In this document: positions 45,879-53,630 of the stretch, in pieces
Layout: each line of letters begins with the position of its first letter
Position numbering within the stretch: position 1 is the first letter of the stretch
DNA from: Thiotrichaceae bacterium UBA4486
Lineage (GTDB): Bacteria > Pseudomonadota > Gammaproteobacteria > Eutrophobiales > Eutrophobiaceae
Reading direction: 5' to 3'
DNA: 64,000 bases
Assembly: GCA_002389045.1 (NCBI GenBank)
Contig: DGNS01000009.1
Span: 381,975 to 445,974 of the forward strand
Notes under the pieces: model-generated
Told to the model about the DNA's origin: nothing
The model's database searches: none
What the model saw: the letters and a program-made list of their open reading frames with translations, nothing else
Made by a program: the position numbers and the translations under genes

Positions 45879-46841
45879 CTATTCAAAATGTCCCGGCAGC
45901 TCCTCGGCTATATCGAAAATATCGGCAACTATTCCGTATTTTGCAATACTGAAAATTGAGGCTTCGGGATCCGTGTTGACAGCGATAATATTCTCTACAT
46001 GCTTCATTCCCGCCTGATGCTGAACAGAGCCTGATATCCCCATTGCAATATACAATTTACAATTGCTTACGGTTTTACCGGACTGTCCTACCTGTCGTGA
46101 TTTCGGCAACCAGCCGCTGTCTGCAATAGGCCGCGAGCAACCCAGGGTTGCACCGACGGCGTCAGCCAGCTCCTCGAATTGCTCAACATTACTCTCTTCA
46201 CTGATACCTCGACCTATGGAAAGCAAAAATTCAGATTGTGTAATATCGATATCGCCTGTATCTTCAGGTTCGATGAATTGTTTATGCTGACTTCTTGCCT
46301 GGACTTCCGGACAATTGAAACTCGATACCGTCGGCTCGGCTTTTTCCTCTTCCGGTTTGAAGACTCCCCCTCGAACTGTCAAAGCAATGGTTTCCTTACC
46401 CGGGAAATCGACATCCATATATACTTTTTCCTTGTATGCGGCCCTTGTTGCAACAAGTTCTCCGTCTTCATATCGTATACCGAATACATCGGTAGAAAAT
46501 CCGTATTCACCTCCGGCACCAAGAGCAGGCGCGTAACCCCATGCATCCACAGAATGTGGAATCAGGACAAGGGAGGGTTTTTTATCTTCTATCAGGCCTC
46601 GTACACAAGCTTCATAAATATCCGGCTGGAATTCATCCTGATCAACCTGGACAGTAATAATTTCATCTACACCACGTACACCAAGATCCTCTACATACCT
46701 GTCAGGCTCTTTACCGATTACAGCAACCATAACGGTGCCATCACTCTGTTCCTTCAGCCCTGTGGCCGCAGTTACAAGTTCAAATGTAGCAGGCCGAATT
46801 TCGCCTTGCCGGTGTTCGGCAATAACCAGTATGCCACTCAT
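45879..46841 (-). CDS. etfA: electron transfer flavoprotein alpha subunit
   Basis: MSGILVIAEHRQGEIRPATFELVTAA N-terminus; C-terminal FAD-binding region SGSVQHQAGMKHVENIIAVNTDPEASIF. Confidence 0.85.
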   Translation of the reverse strand: MSGILVIAEHRQGEIRPATFELVTAATGLKEQSDGTVMVAVIGKEPDRYVEDLGVRGVDEIITVQVDQDEFQPDIYEACVRGLIEDKKPSLVLIPHSVDAWGYAPALGAGGEYGFSTDVFGIRYEDGELVATRAAYKEKVYMDVDFPGKETIALTVRGGVFKPEEEKAEPTVSSFNCPEVQARSQHKQFIEPEDTGDIDITQSEFLLSIGRGISEESNVEQFEELADAVGATLGCSRPIADSGWLPKSRQVGQSGKTVSNCKLYIAMGISGSVQHQAGMKHVENIIAVNTDPEASIFSIAKYGIVADIFDIAEELPGHFE

Positions 46842-46843
46842 AT

Positions 46844-47638
46844 TTATACTCCTCTGAATTCTTTGATTATTTCAGCCAGTCGTTTAGCCTGCTCGGCGGA
46901 CGTACCCTCTATAAGCTCCGCATGTCCTCTTTCCGGAATATACATTTTACGAATACGGGAAACACTGCCGGCTTCACCAACATCATTATCATTGAGACCC
47001 AGGTCTGTATGGGAGAGATCCTCAACAGGTTTTGCCGCTGCCTGTTTTATACCACGCAATGAGGCATAACGAGGCTCGTTGATTCCCAACTGTATACTCA
47101 GCACGGCAGGGCAATCGATCGCGATCTCCTCCTCCAGTCCCGCCTCCAGTTCACGCTTCAGGGTGGCATGATTATCACCGGAGTTATAATCAAGGCTGGA
47201 AACGACCGCGGCATGTGGCCAGCCGAGCATGGCCGCAACCGTCATACCGGTCTGGGCAAAAGCGTGATCTGACGCCTGAACACCGAGAAACACCATATCC
47301 GGCGCTTCCTTTTCCACTACGCAGGCTATTATCCTGGCTATTGCGACCTGGTCGGAACCTTCTATTGCATCATCCCAGACCCGTATACCTCTGTCAGCGC
47401 CTTTTGCGAGACACTTGCGTAACTCATCCTCCGATTGCTCGGGCCCAACAGTCAATACTACAACCTCGCTTTCACTATTTGACCTTTCCTTGATCAGCAA
47501 GGCTTCCTCAAGCGAGTAATCATCCCATTCATTGATTTCATAATCACAAAAATCATGATCAACATCTCTGCCGTCATCGAGCATCTCGAACTCATCATCG
47601 AGTATGGCTACCTGTTTAATAGCAACGAGTATCTTCAT
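46844..47638 (-). CDS. etfB: electron transfer flavoprotein beta subunit
   Basis: MKILVAIKQV N-terminus, ETF-beta fold, 264 aa; 2 nt upstream of etfA. Confidence 0.85.
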   Translation of the reverse strand: MKILVAIKQVAILDDEFEMLDDGRDVDHDFCDYEINEWDDYSLEEALLIKERSNSESEVVVLTVGPEQSEDELRKCLAKGADRGIRVWDDAIEGSDQVAIARIIACVVEKEAPDMVFLGVQASDHAFAQTGMTVAAMLGWPHAAVVSSLDYNSGDNHATLKRELEAGLEEEIAIDCPAVLSIQLGINEPRYASLRGIKQAAAKPVEDLSHTDLGLNDNDVGEAGSVSRIRKMYIPERGHAELIEGTSAEQAKRLAEIIKEFRGV

Positions 47639-51398: not shown

Positions 51399-51424
51399 AA
51401 AAAAAAGGGCGGCCGGAGCCGCCC
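51399..51424 (-). terminator. rho-independent terminator after the TMADH-family gene (read on - strand)
   Basis: aaaaaaaaGGGCGGCcggaGCCGCCC on + strand = hairpin followed by U8 on the - strand transcript. Confidence 0.8.
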
Positions 51425-51437
51425 TCGGCAATGAATA

Positions 51438-53630
51438 TCAGTTCTGATATTCAATCTCGTATTCACCACCCGGCATATGCGGTGCCCCCCATGTCGCAAC
51501 TTCGCGGCGGTAAGGTTTCGGATACTGGGCGCGTTTCTCCTCGATTTCCCGTGCCAGCCTGTGACCCTCGAACGTCGCATCGGCAATCAACTTCGGCGCC
51601 CAGGCGTCACCGATAACATAAACATCCTTGATTCCGTTATCCTTCCACTCGTCCTTACGGGCTTTCAGACCGCGATACAGCTCGTCATTGGAATGGCGGC
51701 CTGTTACCAGTACCAGGGTGTCAAACTCGATCCAGCGATGGGTTTTGTTTTCGTTTCGCGGCAGCTTGCCCGGACCACGATATTCCCGTACTGAACCATC
51801 ACCGTAGACATCGTAGATTTCGAGCCTGTTAGCCTCTGCCCGGCTGGCAGCGGTATCGCCCAGGATATTGACATGCATTTCATGCATGCGGCGATGCATA
51901 TTTGGTGCTTCAAGAGTGAAATGCATGTAATGGCCGAAAGGTGCGGCGGATACAACCGTAACGTCATGCCCGTCTCCTGCCAGCTTCTCGGCCAGACTCG
52001 GTGCCATGTAGTAAGGGTCGTAATTCAGAATCACAACATTTTTGCCGATCTCCTTCTTGCCTGCAAAGATCTGTTCCGGTGTGACATGAGTCGGCAAGCT
52101 CGCATCAATGCCCGGGATCGGGTCGTGGGTAGCCGCATTGGTGCCATCGGTATTCCATGACGATCCTGTGGCGATCACAACCTTGTCCGCGCCGTATTCC
52201 AGACAGTCATCAACAGTCAAAGGCTTCGCACTCAATGCAATCTGCGAGTTCTTGTTTTTCTTGACAAGTTTCTCAAGCTGGGTTTCCCGATAGTCACGAT
52301 GATAACTCCATTCACCGAGACCGGGCAGGGTTGCAACATCATTGACATAGCCGCCTATCTTCTCAGCCTGGTCAACCAGGTGTACCGTGTAGCCACGCTC
52401 CATGAGCACCCGGGCGCATTCTCCACCGGAAGGACCGGCGCCAACGACCAGAATTGAATCTTCAGACCCTGCCTTGGGAAATTTCTCCGGATGCCATCCA
52501 CGCCGGTATTCCTCACCTGCTGTTGCATTCTGGGTACAGATGAATGGAGGTCCACCAATCTCCCAGCGTGATATACAGACATTACAGCCGATGCACACAC
52601 GAACATCGTCAACCCGACCTTCGTCGATCTTGTTGGGCAGGAAGGGATCGGAAATAGAAGGCCTGGCTGCACCGATGATATCCAGTTGACCGGAGCGAAT
52701 CACCTCGGTCATTTTCTCAGGGTCGGTAAACCGCCCTACCCCGAGTACGGGTTTTTTAGATACGGTCTTGACGAATTTCTGCCAGGTCAACTGGTGACCC
52801 TGCTGGTAGAATCGTGATGGACCGGCATCTTCACCCCATTCAGCTATGTCACCGATATTGACGTCCCAGAGATCAATAAACGGGTCAGCGAGTTCCACGA
52901 ATTTCAGCCCGTCCCTTTCTATTTCGATGCTGTCTTCGCCATAGAGCGTGTCACAGGCGAACCGTGTTGCGATTGCACAATCGTCACCGACCGCATTTTT
53001 TACCTTCTCCAGTGTTTCGACCCAGAAACGGGCCCGGTTTTCGATGGAACCACCGTATTTATCGGTACGCTTGTTATAGTACGGCGACAAAAACTGCAGC
53101 GGCAGGTAGGAGTGGCCGCCGTATACATAAATAATATCGAAACCGGCATCACGCGACCGCTTGGCGGCCTCGACATAAAACTGCTGAACCTCGTTAATAT
53201 CATCCTGATCCATCTCGTGGCAGTACGTCTGCATCTCGAACTCTGATGCATACTGACTGGGGCCACGCGGGGTACAGCGGCTTTCCATGCAGGGAGCATG
53301 TGATGCGCCGTACCACATTTCAACACCCGCAAGGGATCCATGCTTGTGTATGTGTTCCGTCATTGCGCTGAGATTACGAATATCACCATCATCCCAGATA
53401 CGTGCCGAGACACGATGGGTATCATCTGATTCAGGATGAATTGAACAATATTCAGTATTAATGCCGCCCCAGCCGCCTTCCGCTTTTATTGAACGATGTG
53501 CTGCCTGAAAACCCGGCTTGTCAGAACCCGCACCTATACAGTGTGGTACCTGATAGAATCTGTTTCTCAGCGTTTTAGGCCCGATTTTAATCGGTTCAAA
53601 AAGGATGTCATACTTAGGATCACGTGCCAT
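51438..53630 (-). CDS. tmd: trimethylamine/dimethylamine dehydrogenase family flavoprotein (6-S-cysteinyl-FMN, [4Fe-4S], ADP-binding domains)
   Basis: N-terminus [32 protein letters not shown] with the FMN-linking Cys; [11 protein letters not shown]...C 4Fe-4S motif; VVGAGPSG dinucleotide fold; 730 aa, TMADH length. As recalled from memory, closely parallels Methylophilus TMADH. Confidence 0.8.

Follow-up and report, generated by a model that had tools for sequence, protein, structure and literature searches.

A conserved trimethylamine dehydrogenase gene cluster with a predicted EtfD-family quinone oxidoreductase and an LRV-repeat solenoid protein beside its electron-transferring flavoprotein

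Where do the electrons go that trimethylamine dehydrogenase (TMADH) hands to its electron-transferring flavoprotein (ETF)? The TMADH-ETF pair of Methylophilus W3A1 is a textbook model of inter-protein electron transfer, and we know of no re-oxidant of this high-potential ETF that has been identified in the searchable literature. The question is raised by a gene cluster in a 64,000-nt stretch of contig DGNS01000009.1 of Thiotrichaceae bacterium UBA4486, hereafter the window, to which all cluster coordinates refer. A reading made from the letters alone (the sequence-only reading) had proposed that a whole electron path is encoded here side by side, from a TMADH-family dehydrogenase through ETF to a membrane iron-sulfur (Fe-S) protein, together with an LRV-repeat protein. 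The present analysis bears out the proposed path to the extent that the five genes, the orthology of TMADH and ETF, and the synteny in 80 related loci are all confirmed. We consider it probable that the cluster encodes by itself all that is needed to pass electrons from trimethylamine to the respiratory chain, and that in this path the LRV protein would act as a docking or assembly factor. The elements of the cluster, in the order of transcription, are as follows.

51438..53630, minus strand: tmd, trimethylamine dehydrogenase (6-S-cysteinyl-FMN, [4Fe-4S] and ADP-binding enzyme), 730 aa
51397..51426, minus strand: intrinsic-terminator-like hairpin and T-run just 3' of the tmd stop, by direct reading of the sequence
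49024..51180, minus strand: EtfD-family membrane oxidoreductase (the Fe-S protein), predicted ETF:quinone oxidoreductase, 718 aa
47638..49017, minus strand: LRV-repeat alpha-solenoid protein, proposed adaptor or assembly factor, 459 aa, GTG start
46844..47638, minus strand: etfB, ETF beta subunit of the W3A1 type, 264 aa
45879..46841, minus strand: etfA, ETF alpha subunit (FAD) of the W3A1 type, 320 aa

The sequence-only reading had placed these five open reading frames (ORFs) correctly, all on the minus strand, and the Pfam and NCBIfam domain content of their products agrees with its description. The four genes after tmd, which it had called an operon, are indeed packed in a tight, operon-like manner, with starts and stops that overlap or nearly abut. 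The GTG of the LRV gene lies 6 nt past the stop of the Fe-S gene, the LRV stop overlaps the etfB start (TAATG, with GGAG upstream), and the etfA ATG is found 2 nt past the etfB stop. The terminator ascribed to tmd is real in the sequence as well: a 9-bp stem with 7 G-C pairs (GAGGGCGGC-TCCG-GCCGCCCTT) is followed by T6-T8 at 51426-51405, and the site ranked first among the terminator-like sites in a scan of 43700-54600. To examine related loci, one genome per species was scanned with the Fe-S protein, yielding 80 loci (L001-L080) at 61-80% identity. A hairpin with a T-tail occurs in the gap between tmd and the Fe-S gene in at least 22 of 76 of them; this gap measures 257 nt in the window and at minimum 66 nt in the related loci. 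The hairpin is probably an attenuator or an mRNA-stabilising element between tmd and the four downstream genes. A 33-codon ORF with a plausible Shine-Dalgarno sequence in the same gap (approximately 51230-51331, minus strand) is conserved in no related locus and is probably spurious, and no Rfam family, riboswitches and other known RNAs included, was matched anywhere in the window.

By sequence comparison, the tmd product is a true orthologue of the W3A1 trimethylamine dehydrogenase (EC 1.5.8.2). The phmmer score against the W3A1 enzyme (PDB 1DJN/2TMD) is 1314 bits, with residues 2-729 aligned on residues 1-728 of 1DJN, compared with 530 bits for histamine dehydrogenase and 119 bits for 2,4-dienoyl-CoA reductase. 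The protein thus groups with TMADH and not with either of the two families that the sequence-only reading had named as possible alternatives. Pfam recognises Oxidored_FMN, an OYE-like second a/b domain and Pyr_redox_2, and both cofactor motifs are kept, VPHC(30)IGAG around Cys30 and RVC(345)IGCNVC...IC for the [4Fe-4S] cluster (CxxCxxC...C). All 12 functional residues of W3A1 TMADH that were checked are retained (Cys30, Tyr60, Ser74, Trp105, Tyr169, His172, Trp264, Asp267, Val344, Cys345, Trp355 and Tyr442). We take Cys30 to be the site of the FMN link, Cys345 to belong to the cluster, and Val344 and Tyr442 to form the path to ETF; Tyr60, Trp264 and Trp355 presumably shape the substrate bowl of the trimethylamine type, and Tyr60, Ser74 and Trp105 presumably govern the specificity for trimethylamine versus dimethylamine. 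At the latter three positions the window enzyme has Tyr, Ser and Trp, and paralogues in related loci (62-69% identity) have Gln, Thr and Phe, which we take to be the pattern of dimethylamine dehydrogenase (DMADH). TMADH and DMADH-type enzymes are therefore cleanly separated by these residues.

The last two genes of the cluster encode proteins with the Pfam ETF and ETF_alpha domains. EtfB scores 375 bits against chain C of 1O94 over residues 1-263, and EtfA 417 bits against chain D of 1O94 and 3CLU; overall, the window ETF is about 65% identical to the W3A1 protein. The recognition-loop motif PRYASL(194)RGIKQA of EtfB, with beta Leu194, is kept, and the flavin-adjacent Arg237 of EtfA is retained. 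The EtfB/EtfA partner motifs PRYASLRGIKQA and CSR(237)PIAD are both conserved. Judged from these alignments, the two proteins are orthologous to the subunits of the W3A1 ETF crystallised with TMADH, and belong to the canonical non-bifurcating heterodimer type. For the W3A1 protein, an unusually positive oxidised/semiquinone couple of +196 mV and a semiquinone/hydroquinone couple of -197 mV are cited in PMC12630350.

The 718-aa Fe-S protein is a member of the EtfD family, of a kind without the D1 cluster and without the C-terminal tail, and is predicted to function as an ETF:quinone oxidoreductase. It matches EtfD of M. smegmatis (9OJN) with E 1e-64 and an overall identity of 26%, the other PDB matches by sequence being marginal ones to HdrC. 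The AlphaFold (AF2) model (pLDDT 79.5) and 9OJN match in fold from end to end (Foldseek E 4.9e-29, TM 0.78/0.76, 755 columns), and partial Foldseek matches were found to LutA in the CCG domain and to NarI in the membrane domain (TMt 0.56). Pfam detects a 4Fe-4S dicluster domain (Fer4) and CCG, with a QmoC match at residues 19-211, and five hydrophobic transmembrane (TM) segments are present. The matches of QmoC and NarI to the N-terminal domain are in accordance with the NarI-like/HdrD-like fusion that the sequence-only reading had described.

The cofactor sites were evaluated by pairwise alignment with the EtfD ligands of PMC13083937 and by an alignment of 80 orthologues. His90 and His271 are the alignment partners of the EtfD haem-b ligands His78 and His241, Cys319/322/325/329 and Cys384/387/390/394 form the sites of the cubane clusters D4 and D3, and Cys593/628/629/668 in the second CCG domain form that of D2. 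All of these residues are invariant in the 80 orthologues, and so is Phe97, which aligns with Phe85 at the quinone site of EtfD. Only the second of the two CCG domains keeps its cysteines. The linear [3Fe-4S] site D1 is absent, Cys503, 538, 581 and 584 of EtfD being replaced by Asp469, Thr504, Asp541 and Ser544, and the replacements are themselves conserved across the orthologues as D, N/T/S, D and S/T. At the fifth cysteine position of the CCG motif, the window protein has C671 (CPKC), and 46 of the 80 orthologues have Asp (CPKD); either the Asp may ligate a non-cubane cluster or the position is a non-ligand. The chain ends about 17 residues past the last conserved helix, without the disordered, repeat-containing C-terminal tail.

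His76 and His253 are also invariant in the 80 orthologues and lie in or near the membrane domain; they are not haem ligands in the EtfD structure. We considered a di-haem, NarI-like membrane domain coupled to the proton motive force, built on the invariant H76, H90, H253 and H271, and rejected it, as H76 is located in a cytoplasmic loop, helix 2 holds no partner for H253, and EtfD has one haem.

The Fe-S protein had previously been likened to the type proposed as ETF:menaquinone oxidoreductase in syntrophs. The architecture agrees, but the type is no longer merely proposed, since a structure (2026) and an activity assay are now available for the mycobacterial EtfD, which has been shown by experiment to connect ETF with the quinone pool (PMC13083937). 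The mycobacterial ETF:menaquinone oxidoreductase (Rv0338c / M. smegmatis, 9OJN) shares with the window protein the one-chain layout of five TM segments with haem b, two cubane clusters and two CCG domains. It differs in having the D1 cysteines and a disordered C-terminal tail of 13-30 kDa, through whose repeats ETF is predicted to bind (PMC13083937). The electron source also differs, being acyl-CoA dehydrogenases for mycobacterial EtfD and the TMADH-specific ETF in the window, and only the window has a separate LRV gene. DgcB and FadF are D1-less homologues of EtfD, for which D2 has been argued to take the electron from ETF (PMC13083937). The EtfD superfamily also includes the EMO/FadF-type ETF:(methyl)menaquinone oxidoreductases that are known from syntrophs and Bacillus (PMC13083937). 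By description they share the DsrMK/HdrDE-like architecture proposed in the sequence-only reading; unlike the window protein, they serve beta-oxidation or enoyl-CoA respiration with menaquinones. In the proteobacteria that concern us here, the quinone is likely ubiquinone rather than menaquinone.

An analogous arrangement has been described in Pseudomonas aeruginosa and Vibrio natriegens, namely the dimethylglycine demethylase operon dgcA-dgcB-fixAB, which is described as having four genes and no LRV gene (PMC12093977). It presents the same order of a TMADH-family flavoenzyme, a D1-less EtfD-family protein and an ETF, and serves N-methyl amine oxidation (PMC12093977, PMC13083937). However, DgcB carries an N-terminal DUF3483 (PMC12093977), for which the window protein gave no match at E<=1e-3 in the Pfam scan, and the dehydrogenase of the window is a bona fide TMADH and not DgcA. 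The statement of the sequence-only reading that no module joining TMADH, ETF and a DsrMK/HdrDE-like quinone reductase had been described must thus be narrowed: the dgc operon is such an analogue, and it is the TMADH version with an LRV gene that appears undescribed. In full-text searches of the openly readable literature, we found no description of a tmd/EtfD-like/LRV/etfBA cluster. A further statement, that a classical FAD-type ETF:quinone oxidoreductase (ETF-QO) is missing, holds within the window, to which it is limited; no ETF_QO domain (PF05187) was detected in the approximately 50 larger ORFs scanned there.

The arrangement of the five genes was traced in the 80 loci by tblastn of the window proteins, counting only loci with enough flanking sequence. 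The order and strand tmd / EtfD-like / LRV / etfB / etfA are nearly invariant. A TMADH-family gene lies directly upstream of the Fe-S gene in 73 of 74 evaluable loci, the LRV gene directly downstream in 70 of 71, and etfB-etfA further downstream in all 68; the Fe-S gene stands between the dehydrogenase and the etf genes in the window and in at least 65 related loci. The same order in nearly all of the 80 loci puts the arrangement far beyond chance. The neighbourhood of LRV, etfAB and the Fe-S gene, whose conservation the sequence-only reading had suggested as a check, is therefore maintained, and the Fe-S protein is not a GlcF-like protein devoid of ETF association: it is distant from GlcF (30 bits) and GlpC (54 bits), in addition to its constant position beside etfBA. 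The cluster occurs in Gammaproteobacteria (Methylophaga, Methylohalomonas, Woeseia, Arenicellales), Betaproteobacteria (Methylophilus, Methylotenera, Methylopumilus, Novimethylophilus) and Alphaproteobacteria (Hyphomicrobium, Hoeflea, Aurantimonas, Tabrizicola, Pontibaca, Roseovarius). It was also found in Paraburkholderia phymatum, on plasmid IV of Paracoccus aminovorans and on pAZKH of Azoarcus KH32C, so that it resides on chromosomes as well as on megaplasmids. In these three, RefSeq labels the products 'FAD-dependent oxidoreductase', 'heterodisulfide reductase-related iron-sulfur binding cluster' or '(Fe-S)-binding protein', 'hypothetical protein', and ETF beta and alpha. At the nearest locus, L001, the redox proteins are 78-89% identical to those of the window.

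One of the loci (L066) belongs to M. methylotrophus DSM 46235, the type strain. It has the identical five-gene order, and in EtfB it shares about 97% identity with the W3A1 protein that was crystallised, implying that the classical model organism has the EtfD-like and LRV genes immediately upstream of etfB. The W3A1 system (PDB 2TMD/1DJN, 1O94-1O97) and the window thus have orthologous TMADH, EtfB and EtfA; the classical biochemistry covers TMADH and ETF only, and no paper that we found deals with the EtfD-like and LRV genes located between tmd and etfB. The host of the window cluster is an uncultured gammaproteobacterium.

Apparent losses of the LRV gene in L012, L031 and L041 were traced to frameshifts or runs of N in assemblies of metagenome-assembled genomes (MAGs) and are not real. 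In L080, a Tara MAG of an uncultured gammaproteobacterium, etfB starts 110 nt after the Fe-S gene (12100-12210) and the LRV gene is truly absent; it is the sole such locus.

A paralogue with the DMADH signature is located near the cluster in L020, L036, L038-L041, L044, L047, L052, L055, L062 and L063, and in L047 the DMADH-type gene itself holds the position upstream of the Fe-S gene. The paralogue has no ETF, EtfD-like or LRV genes of its own, and the two dehydrogenases would accordingly share one downstream electron path.

The fifth member of the cluster, which the sequence-only reading had left unexplained, is recognised by Pfam LRV (PF01816) with 71.7 bits (cutoff 21.6) and by LRV_2 with 43 bits. 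Its AF2 model, built with 18 homologues, has a pLDDT of 93.6 and forms a continuous solenoid of about 34 helices of 7-9 residues, in keeping with the tandem repeats of about 24 residues that characterise the family; no hydrophobic segment is present. A sequence search found no solved relatives, and Foldseek retrieved HEAT scaffolds, e.g. the PP2A A subunit, as well as 1LRV, the LRV protein of Azotobacter vinelandii (TMt 0.60, 26% identity over 223 columns). The latter belongs to the same PF01816 family and has the same solenoid fold, but the window protein is twice as long. 1LRV contains a [4Fe-4S] domain at its N-terminus, whereas no cysteine is conserved among the window protein and its 68 orthologues. 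Across the 69 orthologues there is no conserved Cys or His motif, the best cysteine (C318) reaching 74%, and the conserved positions are those of the repeat signature D..VRR..A.N. The absence of such a motif makes a redox cofactor unlikely, and an Fe-S cluster of the kind seen in 1LRV was ruled out. On the basis of the model and the counts given above, the LRV protein is a cofactor-less alpha-solenoid and a near-obligatory fifth member of the cluster.

With a median pI of 8.4, the LRV protein is the only non-acidic one of the five (4.6/4.7 for ETF, 5.3 for the soluble part of the EtfD-like protein, 5.8 for TMADH). Its pairwise evolutionary distances follow those of its neighbours in the sub-operon, the Fe-S protein and ETF, at r 0.87 with partial r of +0.38 and +0.28, and those of TMADH less well, at r 0.76 with a partial r of -0.30. 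It evolves fast, with a mean Kimura distance of 1.21 versus 0.27-0.54 for the other cluster proteins, which explains why no more than about 18 close relatives came up in a word-indexed protein search. More distant matches were discarded as functional context: P0145 is in a phage-like neighbourhood and the others are cyanobacterial or Deinococcus plasmid genes, i.e. generic repeat matches with no ETF context. The location of the gene in the sub-operon behind the terminator, its coupling to etfB, the non-acidic pI and the distances tracking the Fe-S protein and ETF hint that the LRV protein may act on the ETF/EtfD half of the pathway. Mycobacterial EtfD is predicted to hold ETF by a repeat-containing tail that the window protein lacks, and a repeat protein with a gene of its own could take over this role. 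We tentatively conclude that the LRV protein is most likely a docking or assembly factor for ETF and the EtfD-like protein.

Combining these results, we propose an electron path that is well supported by homology and synteny. By orthology to the W3A1 enzyme, TMADH would convert trimethylamine to dimethylamine and formaldehyde at its covalent FMN and release single electrons via the [4Fe-4S] cluster. The dedicated EtfBA would dock on TMADH as in the crystallised W3A1 pair, its FAD taking up the electrons. Homology to M. smegmatis EtfD and the strict synteny suggest that ETF would be re-oxidised at the cytoplasmic face of the five-helix EtfD-like protein, whose predicted wire starts at the CCG cluster equivalent to D2, continues over the two cubane [4Fe-4S] clusters to haem b, and ends at a quinone near Phe97. 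The LRV protein, a predicted non-redox component of the same transcript that would be translationally coupled to EtfB, would most likely serve as a scaffold docking or orienting the very acidic ETF on the EtfD-like protein, taking the place of the C-terminal tail in mycobacterial EtfD. Alternatively, it may aid the assembly of the ETF/EtfD sub-complex. The hairpin and T-run after tmd would permit more TMADH than carrier proteins to be made.

Several points weigh against this proposal. The re-oxidation of ETF and the steps involving the LRV protein are deduced from sequence relationships. The ubiquinone potential is about +100 mV, and the transfer of the semiquinone electron from a +196 mV couple via Fe-S clusters to ubiquinone would thus be uphill; it would need potentials shifted in the complex, recourse to the lower, semiquinone/hydroquinone couple, or an acceptor other than ubiquinone. 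A classical ETF-QO may be encoded elsewhere in the genome. The 80 loci were picked via the Fe-S protein; what they establish is a link of this Fe-S subfamily to TMADH, and not that every TMADH relies on such a protein. The Asp of CPKD in 46 of the 80 orthologues and the invariant His76 and His253, to which no role can be assigned, are problems as well. As for the LRV protein, the dgcAB-fixAB operon and L080 do without it, implying that it is no general requirement for transfer from ETF to an EtfD-type protein. W3A1 TMADH and ETF have reportedly been purified and reconstituted without a 50-kDa partner, and in vitro they work without a third protein, so that LRV is not needed for the step from TMADH to ETF. 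The arguments from correlated distances and from pI are weak, since all five genes are co-inherited.

The potential problem could be solved if the LRV protein were an obligatory third partner of the high-potential ETF, which upon binding ETF, and perhaps the D1-less EtfD-like protein, alters the conformation or redox properties of ETF. It could, for example, unlock the semiquinone/hydroquinone couple of the 'semiquinone-locked' +196 mV flavin, and the electrons could then enter the Fe-S/haem wire and reach the quinone pool. We regard this reading as quite unlikely. If true, it would define a new class of non-redox solenoid subunit gating inter-protein electron transfer, and would supply the downstream part that has long been missing from the textbook TMADH-ETF system.

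Other explanations of the locus have to be weighed against the path to quinone with LRV as a docking or assembly factor for ETF and the EtfD-like protein. The LRV protein might instead be a maturation or assembly chaperone that helps to insert the cofactors of TMADH (6-S-cysteinyl-FMN, [4Fe-4S], ADP), of ETF or of the EtfD-like protein, and then dissociates. Its confinement to TMADH-type clusters, as opposed to the dgcAB-fixAB operon, points to specificity for the TMADH system, and a solenoid without a cofactor motif is compatible with such a role. The riboflavin-pathway genes nearby (RibBA and a YigB-like phosphatase) suggest a pressure on flavin supply. Recombinant TMADH from E. coli is reportedly only partly flavinylated, and HEAT-like solenoids such as the CpcE/F bilin lyases assist the covalent thioether attachment of a chromophore. 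Nevertheless, the gene belongs to the sub-operon of ETF and the EtfD-like protein, past the terminator of tmd, and is coupled to etfB, not to tmd, its evolutionary distances correlate least with those of TMADH, and the DMADH paralogues share the same single LRV gene. Moreover, the flavinylation of TMADH has been described as self-catalytic. We therefore consider a pure maturation role unlikely.

A different doubt concerns the Fe-S/haem protein, which may not be a plain ETF:quinone oxidoreductase but a second dehydrogenase subunit that takes electrons directly from TMADH, or a carrier of ETF electrons to an acceptor outside the quinone pool. LRV might also modify the redox behaviour of ETF in such a way that transfer becomes feasible. 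The +196 mV couple, which makes downhill transfer to ubiquinone questionable, speaks for this, as do the description of dgcA and dgcB as alpha and beta subunits of one dehydrogenase, the absence of the D1 entry cluster and the Asp in place of the last CCG cysteine in the majority of the orthologues. Partner binding is also said to unlock the hydroquinone of W3A1 ETF, a result attributed to Jang, Scrutton and Hille 2000. The whole EtfD wire, however, is conserved (D2, D3, D4, haem b and the quinone-site aromatic residue) and the fold superposes over its full length, and the etfBA genes present in every evaluable locus would be needless if TMADH fed the Fe-S protein directly. TMADH itself is a soluble homodimer that is not known to occur in a membrane-bound form, and its direct reduction of ETF in vitro is efficient. 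We thus find this explanation very unlikely. That the Fe-S and LRV genes lie between tmd and etfBA by mere accident is effectively refuted by the synteny counts, with order and strand kept across Alpha-, Beta- and Gammaproteobacteria and on both chromosomes and megaplasmids, and by start and stop codons that overlap or nearly abut; its probability is close to nil.

Beyond the five genes, the cluster sits in a methylated-amine island. The neighbouring genes identified by Pfam and NCBIfam are given below.

56566..57393, minus strand: Gcw_chp/TorF-family predicted outer-membrane porin (Pfam PF09694), upstream of the two-component genes
54491-56323, minus strand: multi-PAS FixL-like histidine kinase
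53874-54494, minus strand: FixJ-like response regulator, directly upstream of tmd
44776-45594, minus strand: FolE2, in the downstream block 37835..45594
44051-44776, minus strand: YigB-like HAD phosphatase (riboflavin pathway)
38976-43725, minus strand: LIV/urea-type ABC transporter, whose binding protein recurs in 13 of the 80 loci
37835-38938, minus strand: GCV_T aminomethyltransferase-family protein, 367 aa
36616-37794: RibBA (DHBP synthase / GTP cyclohydrolase II), downstream of the cluster

The FixJ/FixL-like pair is syntenic in the closest relative, L001, and not across the wider set; from its position it is a candidate for the regulators of the cluster. A Gcw_chp homologue is found within 10 kb in 15 of the 80 loci, and in Azoarcus KH32C a 'TorF family putative porin' is encoded beside etfA. 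This loose association makes the Gcw_chp protein a candidate outer-membrane uptake channel for methylated amines. Of the 80 loci, 40 have a GCV_T homologue within 10 kb of the cluster, and FolE2 and RibBA homologues are each present at that distance in 23; the recurrence of the latter two suggests that flavin and folate supply is co-selected with TMADH and ETF. In Paracoccus aminovorans, Azoarcus KH32C and Paraburkholderia phymatum the GCV_T gene immediately adjoins the cluster, and its product may serve to bind TMADH-derived formaldehyde to tetrahydrofolate.

At the 3' end of the window (62686-63997), SoxG-like and GCV_T-domain ORFs resemble subunits of sarcosine oxidase or N-methylglutamate dehydrogenase, which fits a larger island of methylated-amine catabolism. 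Elsewhere in the window, a 1776-aa signalling protein with many PAS domains, a GAF domain, and GGDEF and EAL domains is encoded at 27084-32414, and a second PAS-GGDEF-EAL protein at 60415-62553. A bacteriophytochrome (PAS_2-GAF-PHY) fused to GGDEF is found at 3016-5692, overlapping an upstream haem oxygenase gene, and looks like a light-responsive c-di-GMP module.

The dehydrogenase and the ETF of this cluster are already known, and the Fe-S protein adds a member to the D1-less subtype of the EtfD family. What appears to be new, as judged by the full-text searches, is the assignment of an EtfD-type acceptor to the classical TMADH-ETF system, the conservation of the cluster across three proteobacterial classes, and the cofactor-less LRV solenoid as a near-obligatory fifth gene. 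The structure and the assay of the EtfD family date only from 2025-26, and the present cluster would carry the family beyond lipid catabolism, into the oxidation of methylated amines by methylotrophs that abound in marine and freshwater environments. It would also provide the first functional context for an LRV-repeat protein. With the cluster present in at least 80 species, M. methylotrophus included, the EtfD-like protein and the LRV protein can be named as concrete candidates, and both the re-oxidation of W3A1 ETF and the role of LRV become directly testable.

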